Source: Elusimicrobiota bacterium (GTDB lineage Bacteria > Elusimicrobiota > Elusimicrobia > UBA1565 > UBA9628). Taken from it: a DNA stretch of 64,000 nt. A model generated the notes under the pieces. It was not told where the DNA came from. It was given only the letters and a program-made list of their open reading frames with translations, and did not search any database. The translations under genes were made by a program, and so were the position numbers. Where the stretch lies: NCBI GenBank assembly GCA_027319565.1, contig DAHVNA010000003.1, positions 29,042-93,041 of the forward strand, read 5' to 3'. Position 1 is the first letter of the stretch. Each line of letters opens with the position of its first letter. Below are positions 20,519 to 59,453 of this stretch, piece after piece.

Positions 20519-23197
20519 CTATTTCGGGGCCGGCCCCTCCACGACTTCAACCATATCCTCAGGGCGAAGCCACTGCGAAAAAGCCCGGCTCACATCTTTG
20601 GCTTTTAAATGGACATAAATCTTCGCCGCGCGCTCAGGTTCATCGAGAGAAAGACCGAAACTGGACAAATAAAGCCAGCGCGAAGCCACTGCTCCAAAGC
20701 TGGCTTCTTTTAAAGGAATCGAGCGCAAAAGCAAAATTTTACCTTGTCTCAATTCTTGAGCGGAAACCTCTTTTTTTTGCATCGCGAGGATATCGTTTAA
20801 AGCCAAGGTTCTGGCCTTTGAAACTTTATCCGGGTCGGAACCGTAGACGATTTGATACCTTGACCGCGTGCGTCCCGCGTCCCATTCAGACCAGACTGAA
20901 TAAGCCAAACCCGTCTTCTTGCGCAAGTCCAAACTCAGCCTTGAAGCGTAAAAGGCTCCGCCCAAAATTTTATTGCCTAAATTAAGAGCGTAGTAATCGG
21001 GAGACAAGCGCGTCATCCCCACCGTCTGAGCCAAAATGACCTGATCCTGAAGCCGGCTTGAATCGGGGACATTGATTTTCGAGAAGTGATTGAGCGGCAC
21101 TGTTGGATAGTCGATATTGGGTTTTGGCCCAACGGCTTTCCAAGACCCGAAATAGCGCTCAATGACCGTTTTGGCCTCTTCGGGATCCACTTGCCCAATA
21201 ACGACGATGGTGGCCATATCCGGTCGAAAAACCTTATGATAATATTGTTTGACGTCGTTGAGGCTTAAAGCCTTAACCGTCTTCGGAGTCGCCTGGCGCA
21301 AAATCGGATCGGTTTTGGGATAAAGCGCCTTGTCCACCCCCCGCCAAGTCAGATGATCGGGGCTTTGAAGTTCGCCGACCAATTCGTCAGCCACCTCTCC
21401 GCGGATGATTTTGAAATCATGCTTGGGAAGAGCCGGGGACAATTCATTTTCAGCCAACAATTTGACTCCCTCTTCAAAATGACTCGACAAGACATTGAGA
21501 AAAAAGCGGGTTCCCGCGTTTTCATCGGCCGCAATATCATCGAGAGCTTTTTGAAACGCGATTCGATTCAGATTTTTACTTCCGTAAGGAAAGAGCTCTC
21601 CCAAGACCCGCTCCACTCCTTCTTTTCCGGGCACAGCCTCGGTATCGGGATTGGATAAAATCTGTCCGGAAACCGAAACCGTGGGGCTAATCGCCTCGGG
21701 TTCCACAATTAAATGGATTCCGTTGGGCAAAACACTGACAATGGGATGAAGGGTTAAAGGCGGAATTTTTAGGCTCTCGACCGCCTTTCGCGCCCACAAG
21801 GGGAGCGGCACGGCTTTGACCGAAGAAGAGGCAAAAGATTCCTGGCCTCCAAAACCCTTGCCTGAAATCGGCTTACCCGAAGGCTGCGGAGTCAAAATCG
21901 TGGAAGCGGAATGGTCAAAATCAATATATTTTTTCGCGACGCGCGCGACATCTTCAGGGGTGACTTTCTTGATCGCCTCGATATCCTCATCGGGAGACTG
22001 TCGCCCCTCGCCTGCCACCGCCTGCGACCATTCCATCGCCAGTCCCTCAATCGAATTTTTTTGAAATTCAGCCGAAGCCACTTCCCGCCGCTTAGCCGCG
22101 GCAATAAAATCGGGATCAATTCCCTTTGACAACTCTTTTTTCAATACCGCATTGATCTTCTTGAGCAACTTCTTGGAGTTCGCTCCTTTGGGAAATCCCG
22201 CAATCGCAAAGCCCATTCCCGCCTTGGGAAGGCCTTCGTAATAAAACCCCGCAAAAAGCGCATCTCCCTTGACCTGAAGTTCATAGAGAGGCCCCCGCGG
22301 GTTCGACAACGCATCTGAAAGGATCTGAGCCGCGGCATAATCAGGGCTATCGCTACCCGGAAGACGAAAAACCACGGCCACCATGCCGTAAGAGCTGTCG
22401 GTATCCATATTCTTAAGCGAAGGTTTGACGGGGCTAAAATTGAAATCCGGCCGCTTCGGCATTTGAACCTGAGAAATCTTCCCGAAAAGCCGGCGCACCG
22501 TTTTTAAAGTTTTGGAGGGATTCACATCTCCGGTGATGACCAAAACAGCGTTATTGGGACCGTACCAATCATTGTGAAACTTCCGAAGCATGTCCGCGCT
22601 CGTCTTATCGAAGGAAGGGCGGGTTCCCAAGGCGTCATGTTCATATGGGGTCCCTTTAAAAAGAGTTTTGAGAAGTTTCATGTAAAAAACGTAGTTCGGA
22701 TCCGAGAGATCCCGTGAGACTTCCTGCTCGATAGCGCCGCGCTCTTTATCCCAGGAAGATTTTTTGGCTGAAATCGCCCGCATTCGAAGGGCCTCGATAT
22801 GCAAAACCGTATCCAAATATTGAGAAGGAACCGTGTAAAAATACTGCGTCAGATTTTGCTGGGTATCGGCGTTAAGGCGTCCCCCCACATCCGCGCCAAT
22901 TTCGGCCAATTGATCCGCTGAAACTCCGGGGCTTCCGCGAAACATCATATGCTCGGTTGCGTGCGCCGTCCCAGGAAAGCCCGCGGGCGCTTCATCGGAT
23001 CCAACCTCATAGTTGACAACGCTGGTCGCCACCGGCGCGAGCGGATCGTAGACGACAATGACTCTCAACCCGTTTTTTAAAGTCTCCCGAAAAACCTGCC
23101 CGGCTGAAATTTGCGTTTTCTCTGCCCGGGAAATAAGAGGAAGCAACAAGAAACCGACCATTAAAAACGCCCGCCGCCATTGATTTTTATTTTTCAC
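20519..23197 (-). CDS. M16 family (pitrilysin/PqqL-like) zinc protease, exported
   Basis: Signal peptide; inverted zinc motif HATEH; duplicated halves (LKNGLRV, LPNGIHL). Confidence 0.93.
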   Translation of the reverse strand: MKNKNQWRRAFLMVGFLLLPLISRAEKTQISAGQVFRETLKNGLRVIVVYDPLAPVATSVVNYEVGSDEAPAGFPGTAHATEHMMFRGSPGVSADQLAEIGADVGGRLNADTQQNLTQYFYTVPSQYLDTVLHIEALRMRAISAKKSSWDKERGAIEQEVSRDLSDPNYVFYMKLLKTLFKGTPYEHDALGTRPSFDKTSADMLRKFHNDWYGPNNAVLVITGDVNPSKTLKTVRRLFGKISQVQMPKRPDFNFSPVKPSLKNMDTDSSYGMVAVVFRLPGSDSPDYAAAQILSDALSNPRGPLYELQVKGDALFAGFYYEGLPKAGMGFAIAGFPKGANSKKLLKKINAVLKKELSKGIDPDFIAAAKRREVASAEFQKNSIEGLAMEWSQAVAGEGRQSPDEDIEAIKKVTPEDVARVAKKYIDFDHSASTILTPQPSGKPISGKGFGGQESFASSSVKAVPLPLWARKAVESLKIPPLTLHPIVSVLPNGIHLIVEPEAISPTVSVSGQILSNPDTEAVPGKEGVERVLGELFPYGSKNLNRIAFQKALDDIAADENAGTRFFLNVLSSHFEEGVKLLAENELSPALPKHDFKIIRGEVADELVGELQSPDHLTWRGVDKALYPKTDPILRQATPKTVKALSLNDVKQYYHKVFRPDMATIVVIGQVDPEEAKTVIERYFGSWKAVGPKPNIDYPTVPLNHFSKINVPDSSRLQDQVILAQTVGMTRLSPDYYALNLGNKILGGAFYASRLSLDLRKKTGLAYSVWSEWDAGRTRSRYQIVYGSDPDKVSKARTLALNDILAMQKKEVSAQELRQGKILLLRSIPLKEASFGAVASRWLYLSSFGLSLDEPERAAKIYVHLKAKDVSRAFSQWLRPEDMVEVVEGPAPK

Positions 23198-25152: not shown

Positions 25153-26555
25153 CTTGGAACCTCCATTGTATTTAAATGAGATTTCATTTCTCCCATTAGA
25201 CGATTAAATTCGCTTTCAAACTCCCGGCCTCCTCTGGAACTCCAAGCGCCGATTGAAAATTGAGTTTCGCCTTCTCCTTTTGGCTCAAGAAGAACCCAAA
25301 ACCTCCGGCGATGAAGATAGAAAAGCAAAATAAGTCCTAGAACCCACAACAGCGCCCCCCCCATGACCCAGGGGTATCCCGGATCATAGGCCACTTGGAT
25401 TCCGGAAAATAAAATCGGATCGACAGAGGCCAACGAAAAAGGCGGCGCTTCCGCGTGCTGAAGAGTTCCGTCTGGATTTTCTTTAAGACAAACGTGCGGG
25501 TAAAGAACAAAAAGCCACAAAGGCGGGGTCGGCTTTCCCGCGACGCTAAACAAAAATCGCACCGCCGGATTCTTGAGATCCAGAGAAGCGGTATCAGGAC
25601 GCCCGTTGGAGACGGTAAAATCCGGCATCAAGATATCGGCGGTCACCGAAAACGGGGTACCCGGAACTTTTTTAGGAACGCGCTGATCCAAAGTCAAGAA
25701 GGTTCCGCCCAGATCCAAGGTCGCGGTCTTAAACATTCCCGCCGCTCCCCAGGAAGCCTGATAAAAACGCACCCCGTGGATATCGAGAGGATGATTGACC
25801 AAAATCGTTTTTTGTCCAATGAGTTTATCTCCGGCTTTGACGCGCAAGGCCGAGGAAAACAAACTCGGTTGAAAAGTCCCCTTGTAAAAATGGACGGTGA
25901 ATTTATCCACGGAAAGAGTCCACGGGCGGTTTTTCATCGCGGCCGTTTCTCCCTCCATGACCGGCACCAGCTCGACAAAGCCATGTAAAGCCTTGATCAG
26001 CGCCCCCAGCAAAATAATGACTAGCGCGATATGGGCGACATATGAACCCCAGCGTTGAAGACGATGTTTCGTCGCCAAAAAAGCCGCGCCGGAAGGACTA
26101 TGGAACTCATCATGAACCGCATAACCTTGGCCCCTGAAAAATGAGCTCGCTTTTCCAAAAGCCTCGTCAAAGCCGAGAGAAGAATCCATGGAAAATTGAA
26201 AAGGCTTAAGACGCAGAGCTCTTTCTTTTTGAGACAAGTGCTTTTCGGCTTCTTCTTCGTCGGTATTTTCCGGAGGAAGGGCGGTCGCGCCGATATCGGG
26301 AGGTTTATTCCAAAGCTTGCAAACGACAATATCAAAAGCCATGAGCCCTAAAAGCCCAATAAACCACCAACTCTGATAGAGATTAAAAATCCCGAAGAGA
26401 TTTAAAATTCTAAAACCAAAGGGATGGAGAGAACGGTAAAGCTCGACTTTATCGGGAGAGACCGAAGATTGAGGGAAAAAGGTTCCAAGCGCGCTTGAAG
26501 CGGCAATCAAGGCTCCTAAAATGATGTTAAAGCGAATCGAGCGAAAAAGTTTCAT
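25149..26555 (-). CDS. resB: Cytochrome c biogenesis protein ResB/CcsB
   Basis: LGTFFPQ, LYQSWWF, YVAHIALV, VNHPL, YDPG; adjacent to ccsA. Confidence 0.9.
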   Translation of the reverse strand: MKLFRSIRFNIILGALIAASSALGTFFPQSSVSPDKVELYRSLHPFGFRILNLFGIFNLYQSWWFIGLLGLMAFDIVVCKLWNKPPDIGATALPPENTDEEEAEKHLSQKERALRLKPFQFSMDSSLGFDEAFGKASSFFRGQGYAVHDEFHSPSGAAFLATKHRLQRWGSYVAHIALVIILLGALIKALHGFVELVPVMEGETAAMKNRPWTLSVDKFTVHFYKGTFQPSLFSSALRVKAGDKLIGQKTILVNHPLDIHGVRFYQASWGAAGMFKTATLDLGGTFLTLDQRVPKKVPGTPFSVTADILMPDFTVSNGRPDTASLDLKNPAVRFLFSVAGKPTPPLWLFVLYPHVCLKENPDGTLQHAEAPPFSLASVDPILFSGIQVAYDPGYPWVMGGALLWVLGLILLFYLHRRRFWVLLEPKGEGETQFSIGAWSSRGGREFESEFNRLMGEMKSHLNTMEVPR

Positions 26556-44961: not shown

Positions 44962-46290
44962 TCATAGCCCGCCTTTGTTATAAATCTGATCTATCTTTTC
45001 AAGCCCCGCGGCGGCATCGGAATTTTCCGGGTCATATTTCTTGGCCAAGATCCACTCATTTTTCGCCTGTTCGTAATTATGCTGCATATAATACTGAACG
45101 CCCAAGAGATAATGCTGTTTCGAGGCTTTTTTATCCTCCTCTGAAACCGCGGCGGTTTGTAGAGGCGGTGTAGAAGAAGTTTGGGCGGTTTGAGAACTCG
45201 CCGAAACAGAAGCGGTTTGAGCCGCTTTCTCTTTTTCCTTTTTCCGCTCGGCTCTCTTTTTAGCTGCGGCAATAGCCTCTTGTCTTCTCTTGAGCGCGGA
45301 CTTTTCTTCCGCTTTCAACTCTTGATGCCTTTTGACGATCGCGTCTTTGGCTTGGGCAATCAGCTGATCCGCCGACTCCGTGTCGTAACCATAATCTGTA
45401 GCTTGTTTCCACTGGGCAATCGCTTGATTAAAATGTCCCTGACGATAGAGATCTCGTCCGGCAACCACATGCTGATTGGCCATTTCCGAACGAATTTGGC
45501 CCATTAAGCTGCGGACCTTACCATTAGAGGGCTCATAGGACAAAATCTGATCCAAAATCTTGAGCGCCTCGTCGGTCTGGCCTTCCCCGTAAAGAGTCAA
45601 GGCCGCTTCCAGTTTTTTATTCATGTCCCTGTTTTTTTGCTGCATCTCGACTCGCTGAATCGCTTCTTGAAGATGCGGATACCTGGGATTTAAAACAAGG
45701 GCGGAATACCATTGATCCAAGGCTTCTTTATATTGCCTCTTCTGATAGAAAATCCGGCCGCGAACGAAATGCTCATGAGCCAATTTAAAGCGGCACTTTT
45801 TCAGCCAAAACTTGGCCTTGATATTGTAGGGCGACAGCTGAACGACTTCTTTAAACCGGTTTTCCGCCTCGACCAAACGCCCTTCCCGGTAAAATTCCAT
45901 TCCCTCGTCGAACTTATCGACGGATAGCTTATGCTCGGCAAAAAGAGGCCGCGGGGATCCTTTTAAATTAATCGCCGCATCCTGGAGAATCTGCGCGTCT
46001 TGATAATCCGGATCAATAGTCAATATTTGAGCGGTTAATCTCTTAGCCCCGGCGAAATCCCCTTTTTTATATAAATCATATGCGCTCCGGTAAACCTCTT
46101 TGAGCATCGCGCGCGTGATTTGAGACTGTTCTAAATCGACGGTGTCAATGGCTTTTTTCTCCTCATTGGAGCTAACCGGCCCCAAGGTTACTTGGGAAAG
46201 ATTTAGAAATAAAGCGTCCATTTTCTTGTCGCTATCCTGCGCATAAAGCGCGGAAGAAATCAAAAGAAAAAAAGCCGCGACAAAGGCCAT
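44962..46290 (-). CDS. Exported TPR protein (TadD-like position)
   Basis: Signal peptide ending ALYA-QD; multiple TPR repeats and a coiled coil. Confidence 0.8.
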   Translation of the reverse strand: MAFVAAFFLLISSALYAQDSDKKMDALFLNLSQVTLGPVSSNEEKKAIDTVDLEQSQITRAMLKEVYRSAYDLYKKGDFAGAKRLTAQILTIDPDYQDAQILQDAAINLKGSPRPLFAEHKLSVDKFDEGMEFYREGRLVEAENRFKEVVQLSPYNIKAKFWLKKCRFKLAHEHFVRGRIFYQKRQYKEALDQWYSALVLNPRYPHLQEAIQRVEMQQKNRDMNKKLEAALTLYGEGQTDEALKILDQILSYEPSNGKVRSLMGQIRSEMANQHVVAGRDLYRQGHFNQAIAQWKQATDYGYDTESADQLIAQAKDAIVKRHQELKAEEKSALKRRQEAIAAAKKRAERKKEKEKAAQTASVSASSQTAQTSSTPPLQTAAVSEEDKKASKQHYLLGVQYYMQHNYEQAKNEWILAKKYDPENSDAAAGLEKIDQIYNKGGL

Positions 46291-47186
46291 TAGAATCCAA
46301 GGCCTCCTTTGAGAAGCGACTTAATCATCGGTGAAAGCATCATGATAAACACCGTTGGGAAAATGAAAATAAATAGCGGAATCAACATTTTGGTTGAAGC
46401 CTGGGCGGCTAATTTTTCAGCTTTATTGAGACGCCGAAAACGCATATCGGCGGCGTAATTTCGCAAAAGTTCGACCAAGGACGTCCCTAATTCGTCGGAC
46501 TGAATAATCAAGCCTACAAATGAGCGAATTTCTTGAAGCCCGGTCCTCAAGGCCATGCGTTCCAAGGCGTCGCGGCGGGAATAGCCCAAACGAACCTCGG
46601 TCAAGGTCTTATCGATTTCGACCTCAAGCTCGGTTTTAGTCTTGGCGTTTTTGACGATGCGTTCAAAAGCCGACAGGTAATCAAGCCCGGATTCAATGGT
46701 TAAAGCCGCTAAATCGACAAAGGTGGGAAAATTTCTTAAGATGGCCGCTTGCCGAACTTCGACTTGTTTTTTAAAGAGACTGTCCGGCAAGATAAAGCCG
46801 ACCACCAGGCCAAAAATTCCAAACAAAATATTTCCCGTCAAGAGTCCAAACAACGCCCCAAAAGCCGACGCCAAAAGCTCTTTCTGATGGAGAATATCAA
46901 GCGGAGTCGGCTTCTCCGGCCTACCCATCATCATATGCAGATTTTCGATGGCTTTTCCAATCTTTAAAGTATTCAATAGCCATAAATCCAGCCGCTCGAC
47001 AAAAGAGCCCTTGGGGTTTAAAGCCGAAAAAGCGGTCTCAAGGGATTTTTCCGATTTAGCGATTTTAGCGACATCGGTCTCGTCTTGGACTGCCGGGCTA
47101 AAAGCGCGATGAACCAAGGTATAGGTGGCCATCGAGCCTAAAAAGCCCAAAATCAACAAAAGGTAATGCATCATGGTCAAACTCAT
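46290..47186 (-). CDS. tadC: Tad pilus assembly platform protein TadC (T2SSF family)
   Basis: FPTFVDL..IESGL, RLGYSRRDAL, QSDELGTS, AEKLA..KMLIPL..FIFP. Confidence 0.9.
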   Translation of the reverse strand: MSLTMMHYLLLILGFLGSMATYTLVHRAFSPAVQDETDVAKIAKSEKSLETAFSALNPKGSFVERLDLWLLNTLKIGKAIENLHMMMGRPEKPTPLDILHQKELLASAFGALFGLLTGNILFGIFGLVVGFILPDSLFKKQVEVRQAAILRNFPTFVDLAALTIESGLDYLSAFERIVKNAKTKTELEVEIDKTLTEVRLGYSRRDALERMALRTGLQEIRSFVGLIIQSDELGTSLVELLRNYAADMRFRRLNKAEKLAAQASTKMLIPLFIFIFPTVFIMMLSPMIKSLLKGGLGF

Positions 47187-48862
47187 ACCTGGACATCTCC
47201 CAATTTATTGACCACCTTCATACCGATGGCGATCCAGATCGTGCAAAAAAGCAATGTAATTACGCCCAGAGGGCTAAAATAAAAAGCGGACATCTGCTGG
47301 GGCTGAAACAGAAACATCACTAAAAGCATAATCCACGGCATAATGCCAACGACAATGGCCTGAATTCTCTGTTGCGCCGTCATCGCGGCGGTCTTTTCCA
47401 CCAATTTAGTTTCTTCGCGGATATTTTCGACAATGCGGTCAAACAGCTTCGTCAGGTTTCCGCCCGCGGTCCTTTGAATGACAATGGCCTTGATAAAATA
47501 AGACAAAAGTCGGCTCTGCACTCTTTCTTCCATTCCCTCCAAAGCTTTCTCGATGCTGGTTCCCAGCTGATAATTTTTAAGACAAAGCCCAAATTCTTCC
47601 GAGATAGGCGGTTGCAAATCCTTTTGGACCATGCCGAAACATTGCACTAAATCGACTCCCGCTTTAAGGCCATTGGACATCAAAATCAGCGCGTCCATCA
47701 ACTGTTTTTCGCATTTCATCCCTCGGCGAAAACGAATATTCTGTAAAAGCCATCCCGGTAAAATCAGCCCGGCATATGTTCCAAGCCCAAAAAAGATAAT
47801 AAACCCAAAGATATTAAAAGTCAAAAGTCCCACTAAAAACCCCAAGACAATCGGAGCTCCCACTAAATAATTAACTTTAACGGTCAAAAACTGGCGTTGA
47901 TATTCGTAGGCCCACTCTTTAGCCTTGGCTTTATAACGATCCGTCGCTTCTTGGATTTGAGCTTTATTAAGACTGCCGAGAAACCATCCCCCAAAAAGCA
48001 TGACGGCTACTCCCACCAGCGTTAGAAAAGTCGCTAGAGCTGGAGACGCGGGGCCCGGCACATCGGGAGGGGCGTAGCCCGCCGGCGGCTGATTGAGCCT
48101 TTGAAAGGACTGTTTAGCCAACATCGCAATGGCCATGACCCCTTGCCGATATTCCTTCACATTTCCATTGGTTAAACCGGTAATCAAACTTTCCATTTCT
48201 TTGTCGATCAACGAAAAAATCGCCATTTCTTCCCGTCCGCGCCCGGCCAGGGAATTTTCAAGCCGCGCGCGATAGAGGCGGTCCAAGGCCATCTCAAAGC
48301 GAATGCGTTCGGTCTCATAATCGCCGGCGAGCGTCTTGGGATCTTGCAATTGGCCGCCGTCTTTGGGCGATAAGGTTTTGCGGGTCAACTCAAAAACTTC
48401 GTAGAGGACCGCCGGAGGCCCCTGCCAAATCTGCGCCTCATTAAGCGTTCCTTGTTCCGGGTCCTGCCAAACCGGATGAGAAATCATCGCCGGCATAATT
48501 TGATCGACCCAGCCGGGAACGATCAGGGCGGGATCGCGGTCTTTCTTAAAATAATGATAAAAACGCTGGACGTCTGATTCCGCCCCGCTTTGGGGATTAA
48601 AAATATAATTGACCTGGGCCGGATTGAAATAATCGGCGAAAGCGGAAGCGGAAAGAAACGGAGAGAAAAAGAGAGCAACGGAAAGTAACGGAAAGACACG
48701 GAAAGCAAAGGAAGGCAAAGGAAAGTTACGGAAAGAAACGGCAAGTAACGGAAAGAAACGGAAGGTAACGGAAAGACACGGAAAGGAACGGAAAGGAAGA
48801 GACAACAGCGAATACTTGCCGTCTCCTTTTATTTCTTTCCGTTTCTCTCTGTTGCTTTCCAT
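47183..48862 (-). CDS. tadB: TadB with extra N-terminal exported domain; signal peptide is encoded by a repeat array
   Basis: C-terminal QLMDALILMSNGLKAG, PPISEEF, QRTAGGNL, TAQQR; N-terminus ends ASAFA-DY. Confidence 0.88.
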   Translation of the reverse strand: MESNREKRKEIKGDGKYSLLSLPFRSFPCLSVTFRFFPLLAVSFRNFPLPSFAFRVFPLLSVALFFSPFLSASAFADYFNPAQVNYIFNPQSGAESDVQRFYHYFKKDRDPALIVPGWVDQIMPAMISHPVWQDPEQGTLNEAQIWQGPPAVLYEVFELTRKTLSPKDGGQLQDPKTLAGDYETERIRFEMALDRLYRARLENSLAGRGREEMAIFSLIDKEMESLITGLTNGNVKEYRQGVMAIAMLAKQSFQRLNQPPAGYAPPDVPGPASPALATFLTLVGVAVMLFGGWFLGSLNKAQIQEATDRYKAKAKEWAYEYQRQFLTVKVNYLVGAPIVLGFLVGLLTFNIFGFIIFFGLGTYAGLILPGWLLQNIRFRRGMKCEKQLMDALILMSNGLKAGVDLVQCFGMVQKDLQPPISEEFGLCLKNYQLGTSIEKALEGMEERVQSRLLSYFIKAIVIQRTAGGNLTKLFDRIVENIREETKLVEKTAAMTAQQRIQAIVVGIMPWIMLLVMFLFQPQQMSAFYFSPLGVITLLFCTIWIAIGMKVVNKLGDVQV

Positions 48863-48980
48863 TTCTTTCCGTTGCTCTCCGCTTATTTCCGTTTCTTTCC
48901 GTGTCTTTCCGTTACTTTCCGTTGCTCTCTGTTTCTTTCCGTTGCTTTCATTTTCTTTCTGTCACTTTCCGTTACTTTCA
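48651..48980. repeat. Inverted array of 10-bp tandem repeats (GGAAAGWAAC x~15, then GTTWCTTTCC x~16)
   Basis: Read directly: left arm 48651-48800, right arm 48811-48980; the arms are reverse-complement consensus. Confidence 0.97.
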
Positions 48981-51275
48981 TTTCGGTTTCGCCGCCGGGG
49001 CGGGACTTGCATTTCCCATCCCCAACGAGAGCGCCTGTTTTTCCGGCGAGGGAAGGCCTTGTCTTTTGGCCTTGGATTCCTCGCTTTCAAAAATCGACTT
49101 TGGAACATTGAGGCCTTTGAGATGAAACTCTTCGTGAAAGGTAGGGACATAATCGCAGGCGGAAAAATAGCCGACGCTTTGGCCTTTCTCGTTAACTGCC
49201 ACCTGGTGATATTTGTAAATATCGCGCATGGATATCTTAAGCCCCTCTTTTCCGGTCACTTCGGTCACATAGGTCACTCGCCTTTTTCCATCGGCAAACC
49301 GGGTCAATTGAACGATGACGTGAACCGCGCTTGAAATCATGTCCACCAAAACCGACATCGGAAGTTCCGTCCCCGCCATCAAACACATCGCCGACAAGCG
49401 CGAAATCGCGTCATTGGGAGAGTTCGCATGCAAAGTCGCCAGCGATCCCTCATGGCCGGTATTCATCGCTTGAAGCATGTCCAAGGCTTCTCCACCGCGG
49501 CACTCGCCAACCACGATGCGGTCCGGTCTCATGCGCAGACAGTTTTTAATCAGGTCGCGAATGGCAATTTCTCCTTTTCCCTCGATATTGGGAGGGCGCG
49601 ATTCCAAGCGCACCCAATGCTCTTGCATCAAATTAAGTTCCGCGGTGTCTTCCACGGTGATGATGCGCTCGTCTTCCGGAATAAAATTAGACAACATATT
49701 TAAAAAAGTTGTTTTTCCGGTTCCGGTTCCACCGGAGATGATGATATTCTTGCGCAAGATAACGCAGTTTTTAATGAAGTCTATGATATCGGGCGTGCAA
49801 GCCCCAAAGCCAATCAACTGCTTATAAGTAAAGGGTTTTGCCGAGAAACGCCGAATGGTAAGCGTCGGACCGGAAACCGCCAGCGGCGCGATAATGGCGT
49901 TGACCCGGGAACCGTCTTTAAGGCGCGCATCGACGAGTGGCACCGACTCATCAATTCTACGCCCCACCGGAGCGACAATGCGCTTGATCACTTGAACCAC
50001 CTGATCATCGTCTCTAAACCTCACCGGAAGAAGCACTAATTTGCCCTGGCGCTCGATATAAATTCGGTCAAAAGCGTTGACCATGATTTCGTTGATGCTG
50101 GGATCCCGCAAGAGAGACTGAAGCGGCCCTAGACCCAAGATTTCATCGATGAGTTCGGTAGTGAAAAGTTCGCGCTGTTGGCGTGAAAGTTTTAGATCCG
50201 GCTCTCGTTGAAGCAGGCTTTCGATGATCGCTGAAACTCTCGCCCGATTTTCTTCATTCTGACCGGTTTCATCTGCAATGCGAATGCGCTCGGTTTCCAT
50301 CGCGGTCACAACCAACTTGTGCATCTTCCCTTTGAGCTCATCCCAAAAAGGCGGAAGATCTTCAGCGGGCAAACGAACAGGATCGGGCTTTTTCTTGGCG
50401 GGCGCCTCAGGAGAATCCGCGCCAAGAGCGGATTTCCACAAGAGTTCCGAGCCTTGCTGGAATTCGCTTGTCTCAAGATTGGACTCCCACGATTTCGCCG
50501 CCGGAATCGCGCTGCCAAGACGAGCGAGCAGAACTTTAAGGGTTTTTGCCCAGTCATTTTGCATATTTTCGGCGACTAAAATTTTTTGCGTATTGGCGCA
50601 CTCGGGAATCAACTCCTCCCAAGGCATATAGGCCAGCACTTTCTTTTGAAGAGTCTGGAAAAATTTATCGATTTCTTGGGGAGCTAAAGAACCGGGGAGA
50701 TTGGCTTGGTTGATCACCACTTCAAAGCGTTCTAAAGGAAAATGGAGGGCTTTGAGCTCGGAAAAGATGTTGTAGGTCGCCTCGCAATGGCTTCTCTGCG
50801 GCAGACAAACCCAATAGACGAGATCGGCGAAATCCAAAGAGAAAATCTGCATTGGAAAATAAGGGTCGACATCGATAAAAATATCATAAGTCTCAGAAAG
50901 GGCTCCCAAAACCTTGGCTACCACCTGGGGCTGAAGCATCGTGATCTCTTTTCTGTTATTACCCAAGGGCAAGACTCCGACCCCCCATTGGCTCATCGGG
51001 ATTCGCCCGCGCAAGAGCTTTCCTAATCCTGAAGGGTTAGGCGCGACCAAGGAGGAAAGCTGCGCTAACGTCGGAGAATTAAGGCGCAATTGAAAAGAAA
51101 GATCATTGCGTCCTAAAGGATCCATCGAGACGATCAAAACGTTTCGGTTCTGGGTTCCGGCCCACACCAAGGCCAGGTTAAGACATATCGCGCTTTTCCC
51201 GACCCCTTCCTTGGGCCCGGTAAAGACCGCAACCCGTCCCGGCAAACTAACCGTCTTCGTTTCTGGGCTTGCCAT
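48978..51275 (-). CDS. cpaF: Fused CpaE/TadZ (ParA/MinD-like) and CpaF/TadA pilus ATPase
   Basis: N-terminal GPKEGVGKS deviant Walker A; C-terminal GLGPL, VDARLKDGSRVN, GGTGTGKTT, LRMRPDRIVVGE, MNTGHEG. Confidence 0.93.
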   Translation of the reverse strand: MASPETKTVSLPGRVAVFTGPKEGVGKSAICLNLALVWAGTQNRNVLIVSMDPLGRNDLSFQLRLNSPTLAQLSSLVAPNPSGLGKLLRGRIPMSQWGVGVLPLGNNRKEITMLQPQVVAKVLGALSETYDIFIDVDPYFPMQIFSLDFADLVYWVCLPQRSHCEATYNIFSELKALHFPLERFEVVINQANLPGSLAPQEIDKFFQTLQKKVLAYMPWEELIPECANTQKILVAENMQNDWAKTLKVLLARLGSAIPAAKSWESNLETSEFQQGSELLWKSALGADSPEAPAKKKPDPVRLPAEDLPPFWDELKGKMHKLVVTAMETERIRIADETGQNEENRARVSAIIESLLQREPDLKLSRQQRELFTTELIDEILGLGPLQSLLRDPSINEIMVNAFDRIYIERQGKLVLLPVRFRDDDQVVQVIKRIVAPVGRRIDESVPLVDARLKDGSRVNAIIAPLAVSGPTLTIRRFSAKPFTYKQLIGFGACTPDIIDFIKNCVILRKNIIISGGTGTGKTTFLNMLSNFIPEDERIITVEDTAELNLMQEHWVRLESRPPNIEGKGEIAIRDLIKNCLRMRPDRIVVGECRGGEALDMLQAMNTGHEGSLATLHANSPNDAISRLSAMCLMAGTELPMSVLVDMISSAVHVIVQLTRFADGKRRVTYVTEVTGKEGLKISMRDIYKYHQVAVNEKGQSVGYFSACDYVPTFHEEFHLKGLNVPKSIFESEESKAKRQGLPSPEKQALSLGMGNASPAPAAKPK

Positions 51276-53905: not shown

Positions 53906-55051
53906 CTAAAATTTAGTGGTCAGGGTAAACTGATTGACGGTCCCCAATGCCCCCATCGGAACAAAGGCATAATCGACCCCTAAGCCGTAGCCAAAAGCGG
54001 CGGAGGTGTAAAAACCAAGGCCCAAACTAATGCCGCTGACCGCGTTAAGGTTAATGGCCGGAGAACTCGGAGTGGTAATCGCGGTATAATTATCGGCTTC
54101 AAAATACCCGGCGCGGAAAGCCAATTGACCCACCTCTAAATATTCTTCAGGAACGGTAAATTCCGCGCCGACTCCGGGCCGCGGAATATCACCGGCGAAT
54201 TGATGGACCTCGAAGCTTAGCTTAAAGAAATCATTAGGGATAATCGCAAAACCCGCGCGCATTGTAGAACCAACGACATATTGGCTGGCGCCAAAATTTT
54301 GGTAGGAAGCTCCAAGACTCAGCCAATCATTGGGCTTAACGATAATTCCGGCATCTCCGACCAAGCTGTCTGAGATATCTCCGTTATAGTCTTGATGCAC
54401 TAGGCGAAGGGTTCCGCCCAAAAAAATGCGCTCATACCAGAAAGATCTGGCGACAGAAACAGCCCCATAGCCATTGTTAACCTGGACGTTAAAATTAGAA
54501 AGCGGCACCCCGTTTTGATCGCGAACGTCAAAATTATTATCGCTCATGTAAGAGCCGCTAAATCCAAAAACCGTTTGCCCCACCGGCTGGGCATATGCCA
54601 TATAGACGGGAGCTTGAACTCCTTGAATATATTTGAGGTAGGAATAAGAAAATTCTCGTTCATCGGTCATCGCGAGCCCCGCCGGATTCCAGGTAATGGC
54701 GTCAACGCCCGAGGCCAAGGCGACAAAGGATTGTCCCAAGGCCATCGCCCGAGCCGAGCCCTGAGAAATATCTAAAAAGGCCGCACCCCCGGTTCCCGCC
54801 CCGGCGCTAATGGCCCAGGCCGAAGGGACGGAGAGGAAAAGAGAGAAACAGAAAGCAACGGAAAGTAACGGAAAGTAACGGAAAGTAACGGAAGGTAACG
54901 GAAAGAAACGGAAAGTAGAAGAAAGCAAAGAACGGAACCAGACAGAAACGGACAGAAACGGAGAGAAACAGACAGTAGAGGAAAACGGCAAAAACCTTCC
55001 GTTACTTGCCGTCACTTTCCGTAACTCTCTGTTACCTTCCGTTTCTTTCAT
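53906..55051 (-). CDS. PorV/PorQ-family outer membrane beta-barrel; signal peptide is encoded by a repeat array
   Basis: AAFLDI..SARAMALG..F.A.....AITWNPAGLA signature, DYAFVPMGALG, terminal Phe. Confidence 0.85.
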   Translation of the reverse strand: MKETEGNRELRKVTASNGRFLPFSSTVCFSPFLSVSVWFRSLLSSTFRFFPLPSVTFRYFPLLSVAFCFSLFLSVPSAWAISAGAGTGGAAFLDISQGSARAMALGQSFVALASGVDAITWNPAGLAMTDEREFSYSYLKYIQGVQAPVYMAYAQPVGQTVFGFSGSYMSDNNFDVRDQNGVPLSNFNVQVNNGYGAVSVARSFWYERIFLGGTLRLVHQDYNGDISDSLVGDAGIIVKPNDWLSLGASYQNFGASQYVVGSTMRAGFAIIPNDFFKLSFEVHQFAGDIPRPGVGAEFTVPEEYLEVGQLAFRAGYFEADNYTAITTPSSPAINLNAVSGISLGLGFYTSAAFGYGLGVDYAFVPMGALGTVNQFTLTTKF

Positions 55052-55110
55052 TTTCTTTCTGCTACTTTCCGTTTCTTTCCGTTACCTTCCGTGTCTTTCC
55101 GTTGCTTATC
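54831..55110. repeat. Second inverted array of the same 10-bp repeat
   Basis: Left arm 54831-54980 (includes three exact GAAAGTAACG units), right arm 54991-55110 (GTTWCTTTCC). Confidence 0.97.
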
Positions 55111-55112
55111 AC

Positions 55113-58100
55113 TCACGGGATCAGCACCTTTTTAACGGTTTGGGCAAAATTTTTATTTCCGTAAGTTTCCTGAGCTTGAAAGACCACATAGTAAATTCCT
55201 TTCGCCACCGGACGCCCGGCTTCATTGTCTTTGTTCCATACATATGTCAGAGGAGACGGGCTGTCATATGCGGGAGGGACCTGTCCGAAATCATGTTGAT
55301 AGACCAATTCTCCCGCCATCGTATATATCCTCATGAAGACATCGCCCTGGAAAGGCACCCAGATTGAAAAAGTCACCGTCGGCCCGTACGCAGGATTGGG
55401 ATAGGCGTAGGTATTTTGATCAAAATCTCCCTGGGGGTTTAAGGATCCGTTTCTACTGACCGGCAAATTCTCAATATATTGATCAATGGAGAGTTCGCAG
55501 AGGTCTCCCTGAGTCACTTGTCCCGTAATCGTGTCAATGGCGGTGTTGTCGGTAGATCCTATGACCGTAAAGGTGTAATCCCCATCCGGGACCTTGGTGA
55601 AACTGAGGTCGGTTCCATCCCAATCAGTCTCGACTGGCTGGCGCGGCGGCTGGTTTGAAACCAGCACCTTGACCAACGAGCCGATTCCCCCAGTCGTCGT
55701 ATAAGCAGGCGGGCTCGGGCTTCCAATCTGGGGACAATAAGACTGGTTGATATTGGAATTGGGAAATTGCGTATTGGGACGATAAACCAAGACCGCGACC
55801 TTCATTGGTTCCGAGACTTGATAAAAGATGCGCGCCGTAGGATTTTGGAGATTAATGGGGCTGACCGCCAAATCATAAATCTGAATAGGGAAATAGCTAA
55901 TCGTCGCCGCAGAAGTCGACAAAGAGAGGAGGGAGTTTTCTGAAGCCACGTCTTGCGCCGTCATGACGATGGTATAGAAATTAGGAGGCGGGAAATTGCC
56001 ATAATTATCCCGTCCATCCCATACGGCGTTGACGGGAACCCCCCCGTCATATGATTGCCCGAAAACCAAATTGCGAATCACCTGCGGCGGGGTATTGTCA
56101 TTGACCACATTGATTGTCACCGAAGACGGGCGCGTCAATTCAAAATTGATGGTAAATGGATCAAGTTCGACTGTTTGACTTGAGTAATAAGTTCTGGCGA
56201 TAGTCGGCTCGACGTTAAAAATAGGAACGCCGATGATTCCCCTGGCAACTGGAATAATTCCCACGATGCGGTCGGTTGAATAAGCAGAGCCGCCCTCGAC
56301 CGGAACCGTCGCCTGAGCAACCAAGGTAAAGGGATAATCTCCATCCGAAACCATGATTCCGTTGGAGTCAATTCCTGGCCAATTGTCCGAGACCATCAGA
56401 CGCCCCGCGCGCATTCCGTAAATTTGATAGAAAGGCACTTCGGGAACTCCGTTGGAGGCAACGACATCATTACAAGGGCTATTTTGAACCACTTGTCCGC
56501 ATGGCGGCCAAGAAGTATTGACGTTTTTAATAATGGTCCCCGGTTCATAGATATTAATTCCCGTCCACATGGCGTTAGATTCCTCATAATTAATAAATGC
56601 CGTGGCGGTCGTTCCCGAAAGAAGCGGAGACACCGTCAAATTGGTCGTCCGGAACATATCAACCGGGAAAATAGCGGTGGTAGTCGAGACAAAAGCGGGG
56701 AAAGCCGGGTCCCAAGCTTCGAGTTGAACCAGATAATCCCCGGATGAGACGTAGAGACCATTGTCATCGGTTCCATCCCAAATTTCGGTATTGGGAATGT
56801 TGGCGGATCTGGACTCACCCAAAATTAGATGCCTCACAACCGCAGTAGAATTGGCTTCGTTAAAAATATCAACCTTAACCGTGGCGTCCCGGGTCAGGGT
56901 ATAGGTAAATTCAAAGGGGTTGATTCCCGCGACCGGAGGGCTTGAACCGACGACAGTTGAAGTCGGCGTAATTTGGCTAATTCCCACAAGCCCCCGAACC
57001 ACTGGGATAAAGCCGGTATTGGCCACCATGGTCCAAATGCGCGAATCATTAGGGTTTCCATTAAACGGATAGCCATTTTGAGAGGCCAGTTCCGCATAGA
57101 GAACATACACATAATCTCCATCCGGCAAGAGATTTCCCGAGCTGTCTCTCCCGTCCCACCAATCGATGACCGGCGTGCGGGACGGTTGGGATTGGACGAT
57201 ATGCTGAATGGGAGAAACATTAGAAACAATGGGCCCCGATGTTGGACAAGGCCCCATATACGGATAAAAATTCTTGGGTGGCGCAATCGCCTGATTGACT
57301 CCCGCTCCCGTGTCTAACCCTGGATTGTTAACGCTCGACAGCGGCACAATCTCCTGCCCTCCTATCGACACAGGAGAACAAAATTGAACGCCCGGCGGGT
57401 AAATATCCAAAAATGTCGTCGCGGGCTCGGTCAAGGTGTATCCAATCACCGCCAAAGAGGTCGATCCGCCTTCAAGAGGAGTCACCGCAATATCGGTGAT
57501 TTGAAGCGGATTAATGGACATGGGATAGGTATAGGGAGCGGAAATATCAAGCCCATACTGATCCGCGTTTTCGGCCTGGAGATAGACCAAATAGTTCCCA
57601 GGCGGGGCCAAATCTCCATTATCATAACGCCCGTCCCAGGCATCTCCATTAGTCAGGGTTCCGCCCGGGTAACCCTCGCCCACCCGCGGAAGCCCGTTGA
57701 CCAGATGCCGAACGATGGTGACAGTAGATTGATTGATGACTCCACTAGGGACCGTGACGGTCGTAATTTCAATAAACATGGTCGCGTCTTCCGAGAGGCG
57801 ATAGGTCAAATTATAAGGCTCGGCCGCTACGGGAGTTAATTTCCCGACCAAGGTCGGAGACGAGCGAACGACATGGACATCGACGACATTAACCGTAATC
57901 GGTTGCTGTAAAACATTGGCCCCGGCGGTAAAAGAACCGGCGGATTGATAGCTAAAACTACCGCCAGTGATAGAAGCCGTCCCACCCCCGCTGGCAACGC
58001 TAAAATTAATGGTCCCTGAAGTAACGGCTCCTGCCGCTCCAGAACCATTGGCAAAGGTCCCTTGGCTTAAGCTCAGGCTCCCCGTTCCGTTGAGCAAAAG

Positions 58101-59453
58101 TCCGTTTCCTGATCCCACGCAGTTACTGCTATTACAAGAAAGCACGCCTCCAATCTCCGCCCCTTGAATGCTGGTTGACTGCGCCGAAAAAGAAACGCCG
58201 GTCACCCCTGTCGATAGGATGCTCCCATTATAAGTCCCACTTTGAATATAAGTGATCCCATTAGCGCTGCTGGAGTTGAGATTCAAACTGACAGCATCGC
58301 CGGGGGACAAATAACCGCTGCTTGAATTGGTGGAAACAAGGGTCAGAGATCCACTTGTGATTGTGTCAATCGCTGAATATGAGGGAATCGTTTGAGTGAG
58401 TGGATAATTCACAAAGTCCGCGTCATTGGTCGAGCCCGAGGGATAGGCCTGCACATTGGAAAGTTGAATATTTCCGGTCAAGGATTGAGTCTCATTGGTC
58501 GCGACTGTCGCCCGAAAGCCAAATTGACCGTTGGTCTTGCCAAAAATCCCCTGAATATTAATGGAACCGTCCCAAGGAACGCAATAAGGCCCGAGATCCG
58601 GGCATCCCGGTTCTCCACTGATTCCAGTCGTACAACCCTGAAATCCATCCGGAGGGATATATCCGACATTATTGATAAAGAAAGTTCTTAAAGGCGGGGT
58701 TGAAGTGGGGTCTAAGGGATTAGAACCATTGGCGTATTGAAAAACTTCATACTCAAGCGAATCAATCGCCATGGGCGCCAGGGGAACGCCGCTACCGGGT
58801 AAAAGCGCCTCGCTTAAATCATAACCCACCGAGGCGCAGAGATAGATCTCGCTATTACAAATGTTTGAGGCCTCATCCGACGGCCAAGGAATTAAAGGAA
58901 CCGTAGACGGAGCTGATTGGGTTTGTGTTGTCGTTACCCCGTCCGTAACCAGGGCTCCCAGATTACTTAACTGTTGAGTGGCCAGGGCGGAACATTGGGC
59001 CGCGCCAAACCCGCCAGTGCCCGACTGTCCCTCTTGATCAAATTCGATATGCGGGTCATTGGATATATTTCCAAACCCCGCATAATAATCAGGATTAATC
59101 GTGGGAGCCCCCGAGAAATTTTGTCCCCCGCCGGTCCCGCAAGCCGGAGAACTGAGGATTCCAGTACACAAATCCGTTGGCGAAAGCGGAATCGGGGGGC
59201 AGATAAAGCGCGGAACGCCTCCCACGGTGTCTTGAACGATGCAGTTTGGGTTAACCTGCTGGGTAAAAATAGAATCGATAAAAATCTGCTGGGCGCTTGA
59301 AGCTTTGGGGAACAGAGAAAAAAGCGCAAGTGGAAATAGGCCGGACCATAAAACCTTTCCCATAGATGTTCCGGGACGCTCTCGCTTCGCGAGTGAATGC
59401 AGGGACAGTTTCCATTTCCACTTGCCGCGCGGATGCGATATTCGGATGCTCAT
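55113..59453 (-). CDS. Large secreted protein with tandem FlgD-Ig-like modules and a T9SS-type C-terminal sorting-like domain
   Basis: About 8 W(D)GxDxxG...GxY modules; C-terminal YAYPNP..IYTMAGELV..WN..GIY..KKVLI; likely start 59363 (MGKVLW..ASSA-QQ). Confidence 0.82.
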   Translation of the reverse strand: MSIRISHPRGKWKWKLSLHSLAKRERPGTSMGKVLWSGLFPLALFSLFPKASSAQQIFIDSIFTQQVNPNCIVQDTVGGVPRFICPPIPLSPTDLCTGILSSPACGTGGGQNFSGAPTINPDYYAGFGNISNDPHIEFDQEGQSGTGGFGAAQCSALATQQLSNLGALVTDGVTTTQTQSAPSTVPLIPWPSDEASNICNSEIYLCASVGYDLSEALLPGSGVPLAPMAIDSLEYEVFQYANGSNPLDPTSTPPLRTFFINNVGYIPPDGFQGCTTGISGEPGCPDLGPYCVPWDGSINIQGIFGKTNGQFGFRATVATNETQSLTGNIQLSNVQAYPSGSTNDADFVNYPLTQTIPSYSAIDTITSGSLTLVSTNSSSGYLSPGDAVSLNLNSSSANGITYIQSGTYNGSILSTGVTGVSFSAQSTSIQGAEIGGVLSCNSSNCVGSGNGLLLNGTGSLSLSQGTFANGSGAAGAVTSGTINFSVASGGGTASITGGSFSYQSAGSFTAGANVLQQPITVNVVDVHVVRSSPTLVGKLTPVAAEPYNLTYRLSEDATMFIEITTVTVPSGVINQSTVTIVRHLVNGLPRVGEGYPGGTLTNGDAWDGRYDNGDLAPPGNYLVYLQAENADQYGLDISAPYTYPMSINPLQITDIAVTPLEGGSTSLAVIGYTLTEPATTFLDIYPPGVQFCSPVSIGGQEIVPLSSVNNPGLDTGAGVNQAIAPPKNFYPYMGPCPTSGPIVSNVSPIQHIVQSQPSRTPVIDWWDGRDSSGNLLPDGDYVYVLYAELASQNGYPFNGNPNDSRIWTMVANTGFIPVVRGLVGISQITPTSTVVGSSPPVAGINPFEFTYTLTRDATVKVDIFNEANSTAVVRHLILGESRSANIPNTEIWDGTDDNGLYVSSGDYLVQLEAWDPAFPAFVSTTTAIFPVDMFRTTNLTVSPLLSGTTATAFINYEESNAMWTGINIYEPGTIIKNVNTSWPPCGQVVQNSPCNDVVASNGVPEVPFYQIYGMRAGRLMVSDNWPGIDSNGIMVSDGDYPFTLVAQATVPVEGGSAYSTDRIVGIIPVARGIIGVPIFNVEPTIARTYYSSQTVELDPFTINFELTRPSSVTINVVNDNTPPQVIRNLVFGQSYDGGVPVNAVWDGRDNYGNFPPPNFYTIVMTAQDVASENSLLSLSTSAATISYFPIQIYDLAVSPINLQNPTARIFYQVSEPMKVAVLVYRPNTQFPNSNINQSYCPQIGSPSPPAYTTTGGIGSLVKVLVSNQPPRQPVETDWDGTDLSFTKVPDGDYTFTVIGSTDNTAIDTITGQVTQGDLCELSIDQYIENLPVSRNGSLNPQGDFDQNTYAYPNPAYGPTVTFSIWVPFQGDVFMRIYTMAGELVYQHDFGQVPPAYDSPSPLTYVWNKDNEAGRPVAKGIYYVVFQAQETYGNKNFAQTVKKVLIP

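Follow-up and report, generated by a model that had tools for sequence, protein, structure and literature searches.

Palindromic arrays of a 10-bp repeat as a candidate source of start codons and export signals at gene junctions of an Elusimicrobiota genome

Rickettsia palindromic elements (RPEs), reportedly described by Ogata and colleagues in 2000, are defined sequences of about 100-150 bp that are inserted at varied positions of proteins. Palindromic repeats that lie in frame within genes are a known phenomenon, for which an excerpt of PMC2229807 cites the Rickettsia elements, and two further systems touch the leader region itself. In Yersinia, according to a portion of PMC2759123, a transposable element of the miniature, inverted-repeat kind (MITE) is predicted to form part of the signal peptide of YPO1552, relatives of which in other genera carry unrelated signal peptides at that place, and in Neisseria the opa genes hold CTCTT repeats in their leader-peptide coding region (excerpt of PMC3960869). 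Here we describe a window of 64,000 nucleotides from an Elusimicrobiota bacterium (GCA_027319565.1, contig DAHVNA010000003.1, positions 29,042 to 93,041), in which the junction between a cpaF-like secretion ATPase gene and a tadB-like gene is filled by two facing arrays of a degenerate 10-bp unit. The source genome (G000) is a metagenome-assembled genome (MAG) from short reads, with 111 contigs, 2.03 Mb and a completeness of 91.65%. We read the array, together with its relatives elsewhere in this genome, as a lineage-specific palindromic minisatellite of gene junctions that supplies the start codon and the export signal of exported proteins, and give this reading a probability of roughly 0.7. 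In the full-text literature, taken without supplementary files, we found no description of palindromic tandem arrays as signal peptides and no inverted 10-bp array family building whole leaders for about 15 exported proteins. An excerpt of a bioRxiv report on SECReTE offers a possible lead on pyrimidine-rich secretome mRNAs.

The array between cpaF and tadB

The cpaF-like gene (48978-51275, minus strand; Pfam T2SSE at 1.7e-63 and CbiA at 7.1e-08) ends in a TGA stop at 48978-48980 that lies inside the outermost repeat unit, and the array occupies the whole gap from this stop to the conserved mature N-terminus, DYFNP..., of the TadB-like protein. Tandem Repeats Finder, run on the window, returned period-10 arrays at 48645-48795 (15.1 copies, 77% matches) and 48832-48979 (14.8 copies, 74% matches), and an inverted-repeat search paired two arms of 148 nt each, 48651-48798 and 48832-48979, which are 77% complementary and 33 nt apart. 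The unit is the 10-bp GGAAAGNAAC, with about 15 units at 48645-48798 opposite about 15 reverse-complement units at 48832-48979. On the coding minus strand the gene reads a purine arm (about 15 GGAAAGNAAC units, 48832-48979), a 33-nt spacer (48799-48831) and a pyrimidine arm (about 15 units, 48645-48798). An initial annotation, made from the letters alone, had proposed facing arrays of about 15 and 16 units running from the cpaF stop to the mature TadB N-terminus, and both the arrays and their extent were recovered by these searches. The 16-mer GGAAAGNAACGGAAAG, which spans two units, occurs 25 times in the window with at most one mismatch, against 0.04 expected and with none of 100 shuffles reaching 25; all 25 matches fall either in this array or in a second one at 54850-55090. 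The coding strand of the cpaF/tadB array is predicted to fold into one long hairpin, with the spacer as its loop, at -182.7 kcal/mol compared with a shuffle mean of -101.9 (z -12.9; 0 of 100 shuffles equally stable).

Translation of the purine arm gives a peptide rich in Lys, Arg, Glu, Gly, Asn and Thr, and the arm houses an upstream open reading frame (uORF) as well as the in-frame ATG. The ATG at 48981-48979 overlaps the cpaF stop as ATGA and opens this 32-codon out-of-frame uORF (48883-48981, minus strand), the stop of which lies 21 nt upstream of the ATG at 48862 (48860-48862, minus strand). The latter is the sole in-frame ATG after the last in-frame stop, and it begins a 559-aa open reading frame (ORF; 47183-48862, minus strand) that starts with MESNREKRKEIK, continues through FRxFPLLSVx-type repeats encoded by the pyrimidine arm and reaches ...FFSPFLSASAFA/DYFNP (here and below, a slash marks the presumed cleavage site). 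The final 21 codons of the pyrimidine arm specify no charged residue (VFPLLSVALFFSPFLSASAFA). The ORF list and its translations thereby bear out what the initial annotation had said of the coding content, namely an ATG and charged n-region from the purine arm, a 10-aa periodic peptide from the pyrimidine arm with an Arg-free h-region ahead of the cleavage site, and a 32-codon uORF at the ATGA overlap. It had also suggested that the hairpin would bury the start codon, and in our folding ATG 48862 is indeed paired with a probability of 1.0, and is still paired when the 5' part is opened as far as the uORF stop.

Sec signal peptides are laid out as a basic segment followed by an unbroken hydrophobic one of about 10-20 residues, with small residues (AxA) ahead of the cleavage site. 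The putative leader placed here by orthologue comparison (76 aa from ATG 48862; 48635-48862, minus strand) starts with MESNREKRKEIKGDGK, carries a further Arg every 10 aa, has the 21 uncharged residues as its h-region directly before the mature start, and shows small residues at -3 and -1 in A-F-A/D. Judged by this layout and by orthologues with ordinary signal peptides at that position, the TadB-like leader would be translated, exported by Sec and cleaved. The next in-frame ATG past the array corresponds to about ORF residue 117, some 40 residues inside the conserved domain, and the gene therefore cannot start past the array and keep a signal peptide. When leader residues 1-77 were used as a protein query, 277 word-sharing candidates were returned and none reached E ≤ 0.001; this is probably a low-complexity effect, and the null result says nothing on how widely the leader is spread.

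Pfam places a T2SSF domain (2.5e-18) at residues 392-517 of the TadB-like protein, whose gene adjoins that of the T2SSE ATPase upstream and, downstream, a second T2SSF gene that is TadC-like and next in the operon (46290-47186, minus strand; 2e-18), an arrangement that fits a Tad/Flp platform. On these domains the three genes are assigned to a CpaF-type ATPase and two T2SSF (TadB/TadC-like) proteins; the ATPase (48981-51275) also carries an N-terminal CbiA/ParA-like domain. The mature TadB-like protein (47183-48634, minus strand) has an N-terminal extension of about 200 aa ahead of T2SSF, and this extension, with a signal peptide, is conserved through the order. We searched 41 genomes, the window's own and 40 relatives, and found a match in 39, its own included. 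Of the 36 other genomes whose best match reaches E ≤ 1e-170, 31 align from query residues 43-76 onwards, close to where the array-encoded part ends, and the remaining five from residues 91-154, three of these on short contigs.

The 5' regions were compared for 11 orthologues, six from other genera and five from sister genomes. All six of the former have ordinary leaders of 18-21 aa, for example MSRAAAFLSVLLLSAPAAAQ/VFTPAQVKFM, which start at or next to the cpaF stop and end directly before the conserved V/L/PF(T/K)P... start, and we conclude that across the whole order the TadB-like protein is synthesised with a signal peptide at its N-terminus. Among the sisters, G004 is without an array and has a 22-aa leader (MKIKEMKPYFLFLLFLSLPASA/DYFNP), G001 has an incipient array, G005 and G003 have short ones and G002 a medium one. 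G004 thus provides, at the same site, the empty site for which the initial annotation had suggested comparing orthologous tadB 5' ends. The ATGA start is in frame with the mature protein in all five sister genomes. The cleavage region reads AFA/D in four of them (G001, G002, G003 and G005) as it does here, and ASA/D in G004; since AFA before D is common to sister species, the c-region is ancestral and not derived from the array.

Array-led genes in the genome and its relatives

The initial annotation had also proposed a genome-wide count of such arrays. A periodic score over 50 nt detected 22 array loci of about 50 to 450 nt in the 2.03-Mb genome, and no position passed in the shuffled genome. 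At 17 of the 22 the pyrimidine arm reads into an ORF that continues for at least 450 nt, and we took 14 of these as leaders of exported proteins, leaving out C15 (start unclear), C33:22928 (ATG downstream of a half-array) and C96 (an 813-nt contig); a looser scan yielded two further short array leaders. Of the arrays that lead no gene, two (C33:4897 and C89:50610) sit between convergent genes, and the others are upstream of genes or on small contigs. The 14 leaders belong to the TadB-like protein, four PorV-like outer-membrane proteins (OMPs), an SBP_bac_5 lipoprotein, an N_methyl pilin with a leader ending ...PFG/FTLIELLVV, a protein that looks TadE-like by eye, a protease with Trypsin_2, a TPR/SH3 protein, an ankyrin-caspase protein, two lipobox proteins and one very large protein without a Pfam match. 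Pfam families assigned across the 14 were T2SSF, PorV (2), SBP_bac_5, N_methyl, Trypsin_2, TPR (2) and Ank+caspase; one PorV-like product has only a weak, sub-cut-off match to Toluene_X, and four products have no Pfam match. By their domains and motifs, the array-led products are of envelope or exported types, and four of the leader loci are junctions between a gene for a very large surface protein and one for a PorV-like OMP.

Several statistics suggest that the arrays are translated. An ATG within the open stretch before the mature part is present in the gene's frame at 12 of the 14 loci, compared with 3 of 28 off-frames (Fisher p=3e-6), and the other two loci have a GTG or TTG at the array edge. 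The arrays contain 10 stops in frame 0, 24 in frame 1 and 29 in frame 2 (chi-square p=0.01). Over the last 40 codons the longest uncharged run has a median of 20.5 in frame versus 12 on the untranslated opposite arm of the same 14 loci (Mann-Whitney p=0.006; paired Wilcoxon p=0.03), the final part of the translated arm being without the periodic Arg. At eight of the 14 loci translation could first start right at the 5' edge of the array or ahead of it, to judge by the first start codon; four of these eight starts overlap the upstream stop as ATGA or TGATG, and the pilin gene has a Shine-Dalgarno sequence, GGAGGAGG, 6 nt upstream.

The second palindromic array of the window (54830-55107, minus strand), recognized from Tandem Repeats Finder, the sequence, the ORFs and the pattern matches, has the same unit. 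It directly follows the stop of a gene (55113-59453) whose product is a FlgD_ig surface protein of 1446 aa, and it precedes the gene for a PorV-like outer-membrane protein (53906-55051, minus strand), for which it encodes an 80-aa leader ending ...FCFSLFLSVPSAWA/ISAGAG, i.e., A-W-A/I. This PorV-like copy has a weak Toluene_X match below cut-off, and PorV scores above cut-off in two paralogues. A short ORF from the upstream stop ends about 10 nt before ATG 55051 (by eye), a layout resembling that of the cpaF/tadB array. Elsewhere in the genome, contig C33 carries five arrays in 21 kb around a 2777-aa gene. Three of the C33 arrays (12250-12673, 21040-21441 and 25484-25931, outside the window) hold a core of 160-300 nt between their arms; the cores carry a third kind of palindromic repeat, and two of them share 82 nt at 91% identity. 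The C30/C96 pair is the only one among the 22 loci with higher-order sequence identity: contig C96 has identical 77-nt ends and an array 92-95% identical to that of C30, with different flanks. For the array-led protease gene (C89:46480-47800) we noted by eye TTGACA, 17 nt and TATATT immediately ahead of the GTG start; its mRNA may be nearly leaderless, with the hairpin at the very 5' end.

The array motif is patchy among relatives. Matches to the GGAAAGNAAC-type pattern number 91 in this genome, 19 each in G002 and G003, nine in G005 and one each in G001 and G004, all of the same genus, 16 in G021 and seven in G014, both of other genera, and at most two, a control-like level, in 32 of 33 other relatives. 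The 37 matches of G035 were ruled out as arrays and belong to another dispersed element, which is often found at contig ends and has subterminal repeats of about 10-bp period (ACGCAGAGG / ACGGAAAGG type); one G035 locus resembles two ends of this element joined head to head. The use of arrays as leaders extends to G002, G003 and G005 and, outside the genus, to G014 and G021. In all five sisters the protease carries an ordinary MKK... leader, and it has an array in G000 alone, which indicates that the array replaced the ancestral leader in this genome. The leader of the C22 OMP is ordinary in G001 and G004, a short array in G005 and a medium one in G002, and that of the solute-binding protein (SBP) is ordinary in G001, G002 and G004 and a short array in G005. 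The leader of the window's PorV-like protein is a short array in G002, and in G001, G003, G004 and G005 it holds one or two copies of a second palindrome, an A-tract, GGGGACnGTCCCC and a T-tract, which lies in frame there, e.g., as MNKKRGQSPF.... Two unrelated palindromic families therefore occupy one and the same leader in different species. The GGGGACnGTCCCC family counts 79 copies in G001 and 16 in G003, and a few in other genomes. Most of it is intergenic and resembles terminators, and in G001 and G003 its hairpin flanks Y1_Tnp (RAYT-like) genes.

A variant of the unit builds palindromic arrays in a MAG labelled uncultured Elusimicrobia, five ORFs of which match one G000 contig at 34-64% identity; on this slender evidence the MAG probably belongs to Elusimicrobiota. 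A contig from a run of another study (X5) covers the same cpaF/tadB locus with about 97% identity in the cpaF flank (8 differences in 287 nt), has one arm shorter by 90 nt and in the other arm 29 nt in place of 134 nt; the run is labelled mine drainage metagenome, as are the best-matching runs. The GGAAAGNAAC 10-mer was also seen in short arrays, or in long, perfect, one-armed arrays at contig ends, in records of unrelated taxa (Thermoguttaceae, Thioalkalivibrio, Streptomyces, Sinomonas, Acidobacteria and Clostridia), which may reflect chance among minisatellites.

A proposed mechanism and its rivals

The coding properties of the unit, a direct consequence of its sequence and the genetic code, offer a basis for its place in leaders. 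Read as purines, it yields AAG, AAA, CGG and GAA codons and a peptide of the GKxRKxTE(S/R)N type that is basic overall; read as pyrimidines, it yields TTC, CTT, TCC, CCG and GTN codons and VxFRxFPLLS, with no stop in any frame, a peptide of Phe, Leu, Ser, Pro and Val that is hydrophobic but for a single Arg in every 10 residues. As either strand of the palindrome begins with purines, a downstream gene always reads the purine arm and then the pyrimidine arm. Basic-then-hydrophobic coding and the lack of stops mean that, ahead of a gene for an exported protein, an array can replace or inflate the segment from start codon to cleavage region without killing the gene, which would from then on rely on the array both to start translation and to signal export. 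Between cpaF and tadB it would supply the start codon and the n- and h-regions of the 76-aa leader, with the ancestral AFA/D kept. We infer that arrays arise by unit slippage or by insertion and would be tolerated, as in a "safe harbour", rather than selected. The initial annotation had spoken of a repeat element domesticated as an export signal; the array does fill exactly the stretch taken up by an ordinary signal peptide in the orthologues from other genera, but "domesticated" goes beyond the data. No SbcD (TIGR00619), the subunit of a hairpin nuclease, was detected in any of the five family genomes searched (G000, G001, G003, G004 and G007; 92-99% complete), and the same search gave a match in 13 of 14 control genomes, eight of them above the family cut-off; absence of SbcD would make long palindromes easier to keep.

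The stable hairpin would probably throttle independent initiation, and translation of tadB would then depend on ribosomes arriving from cpaF. These could resume at the ATGA, read the 32-codon uORF across the purine arm, terminate there and reinitiate 21 nt further on at ATG 48862. Such a coupling relay would be the most economical route of expression; a miscounted unit or a phase-off state would look identical.

A number of observations weigh against a tolerated, translated minisatellite. With the ancestral ATGA out of frame and ATG 48862 fully paired, efficient initiation is not obvious. The usual length of Sec signal peptides is about 18-35 aa; the leader here has 76 aa and those of the 12 ATG-bearing loci have 35-87 aa, so that the array leaders, with their Arg every 10 residues, far exceed the typical size. 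The h-region test is only moderate, as some long uncharged runs (up to 34) are found on the opposite arms too, which are not translated, and a fully open array in the gene's frame is not significantly enriched (8 of 14 versus 7 of 28, p=0.085). The proposed origin comes without a transposase, a target duplication or, the C30/C96 pair excepted, higher-order identity. A MAG assembly from short reads underlies the unit count and hence each ATG's frame, and public contigs break inside the arrays, none among those listed spanning one. Finally, conservation reaches 89-97% at positions 2, 6 and 9 of the unit and position 7 varies freely, whether or not an arm is translated, and the conservation of 9 of 10 positions in both arms hints at a constraint that toleration leaves unexplained. 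This last point would be accounted for if the array were a selected bifunctional module, an export signal that also presents GGAAAG/CTTTCC motifs with 10-bp periodicity, one per helical turn, to a sequence-specific DNA or mRNA factor. Such a factor might gate or localise the expression of genes for the secretome, coupling it to the cistron upstream. We consider this module unlikely, while noting that it would explain conservation across arms and genera for which neither arm pairing nor coding provides a reason.

Known classes of element do not fit the arrays well. MITEs were ruled out by the spread of lengths (about 50-450 nt) and by the single array pair, C30/C96, that shares higher-order sequence. 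At orthologous sites there is no remnant of the old leader and no target duplication, the array spanning from start codon to cleavage region. Repetitive extragenic palindromic (REP) elements and REP doublets forming hairpins (REPINs), mobilised by REP-associated tyrosine transposases (RAYTs), were ruled out as PF01797 (Y1_Tnp) was not found in G000 at its 91.65% completeness. This family is present in G001 (two copies), G002 and G003 and was not found in G004; no copy of the GGGGACnGTCCCC hairpin was found beside the Y1_Tnp gene of G002. An attC-like integron origin was set aside given the position of the junctions in operons that are syntenic across the genus, and intrastrand triplex repeats, in the excerpt of PMC4666352, are another, short G/C-rich motif. 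Rfam gave no family at threshold, the best matches being plant microRNA-precursor models at 23-37 bits against thresholds of 85-184, which is a generic likeness among long hairpins. The scan for promoters found no promoter-like site. An intrinsic terminator was ruled out by a consensus scan of 48300-49300, in which none of the four sites (2.1 expected) falls inside the array.

The hairpin might instead be a non-coding intercistronic element serving the upstream gene, as an RNA 3'-end stabiliser, an attenuator or an RNase III site, with only the late pyrimidine arm translated, for instance from TTG 48718 as a classical 28-aa signal peptide, MPSFAFRVFPLLSVALFFSPFLSASAFA. This would account for the position of the arrays, since 12 of the 16 gene-linked loci listed have an upstream ORF of 100 codons or more whose stop is at most 63 nt from the array start, and two of the gene-less arrays (C33:4897 and C89:50610) lie between convergent gene ends. 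It would also agree with the A-tract/GGGGACnGTCCCC/T-tract hairpin that sister genomes hold at the same junctions (the PorV-like leader of G001, G003, G004 and G005), which occurs in G003 upstream of an 838-aa gene as well. TTG 48718 is moreover largely unpaired (predicted pairing 0.03-0.32) and its leader is of normal length, but no Shine-Dalgarno-like sequence precedes it. The enrichment of in-frame ATGs in purine arms (12 of 14 versus 3 of 28) and the starts at the array 5' edge with ATGA overlap or Shine-Dalgarno sequence (8 of 14 loci) are not expected of an untranslated purine arm, and the terminator scan found nothing within the array. Selection on RNA is likewise not supported. Sums of minimum free energy are nearly equal for sense and antisense strands (-1093 and -1085 kcal/mol), the sense strand being the stabler in 6 of 13 arrays, contrary to strand-specific selection, and the arms show no co-variation, with a best 50-nt complementarity of 0.777 between an array's own arms and 0.769 between arrays (p=0.43). 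As own-arm complementarity is no higher than that between arrays, the hairpin appears to be a by-product of one unit in opposite orientations and not a co-evolving RNA helix. We therefore regard a non-coding role as improbable, and even then the array would still encode a signal peptide.

Turning to the instability of repeats, gain or loss of a 10-bp unit could act as a phase-variation switch that moves the start codon in and out of frame. A unit length not divisible by 3, the position of the repeats in the leader-peptide region, as for the opa coding repeats in the excerpt of PMC3960869, a pyrimidine arm open in all frames, array lengths that differ among sister species and in a close relative, and an ancestral ATGA that is out of frame in this assembly are all compatible with switching. 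The units are degenerate, however, with 74-77% matches and few identical neighbours, which disfavours high-frequency slippage; the sole cleanly measurable length difference in a close relative, 90 nt in one arm, keeps the frame; and ATGs occur in the gene's frame only, such that most unit changes would kill expression. We think a switch quite unlikely. An artefact of the short-read bin, be it a collapsed, chimeric or snap-back repeat, seems more doubtful still and is hardly to be expected: the genome is a bin of 111 contigs, public contigs from four runs are broken within the arrays, their loose ends falling at 48677-48979, and the out-of-frame ATGA could reflect a miscounted unit, but the arms are only 77% complementary, unlike the perfect inverted duplicates that snap-back produces. 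Similar arrays are present at the orthologous site in four of five independently assembled sisters, in other genera and in the Elusimicrobia MAG, the flanking frames join correctly to conserved mature proteins at 14 loci, and a contig from another study retains 48767-48881, including ATG 48862. A palindromic minisatellite tolerated as leader-encoding sequence remains the reading that we prefer.

Significance and comparison with known systems

If this reading is true, about 15 exported proteins of one small genome draw their start codon and export signal from a repeat family, among them a pilus platform protein, a pilin, PorV-like outer-membrane proteins, a protease and a solute-binding protein. 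The loci would then amount to a natural, replicated experiment on the minimum information and the length limit of signal peptides (35-87 aa). They would also bear on the complementary hydropathy of the code and on the way in which it allows a purine-first palindrome to persist within genes on either strand. For annotation, gene callers will mis-start or truncate array-led genes, and signal-peptide predictors whose training set consists of short leaders may overlook them. With very stable hairpins between the genes of operons, translational coupling, attenuation and the tolerance of palindromes also become directly testable.

Among described repeats, the REP, bacterial interspersed mosaic element (BIME) and REPIN families resemble the arrays in that they are palindromic, occupy gene junctions and differ in copy number from one close species to another; REP sequences are single hairpins of 20-40 nt, whereas the arrays are tandem 10-mers and largely intragenic. 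The opa repeats, to the extent covered by the excerpt of their source, share with them a pyrimidine-rich tandem unit that is not divisible by 3 and is hydrophobic in every frame, but are perfect, one-armed and switch at about 1e-3 per generation, while the arrays are degenerate and palindromic and bear no sign of switching. RPE- and MITE-like elements, as portrayed in the portions of the literature cited above, are closer in that they are palindromic, multi-copy, lineage-specific and in frame within ORFs, adding a peptide without destroying the gene; in contrast to RPEs, the arrays are paired, inverted, tandem 10-bp arrays of variable length that are confined to the leader region. The Yersinia case, in the portion of its source at hand, concerns one predicted locus of a 168-bp, mostly intergenic element, whereas here some 14-16 leaders in one 2-Mb genome, with others in relatives, consist nearly entirely of repeat and are accompanied by reading-frame statistics.

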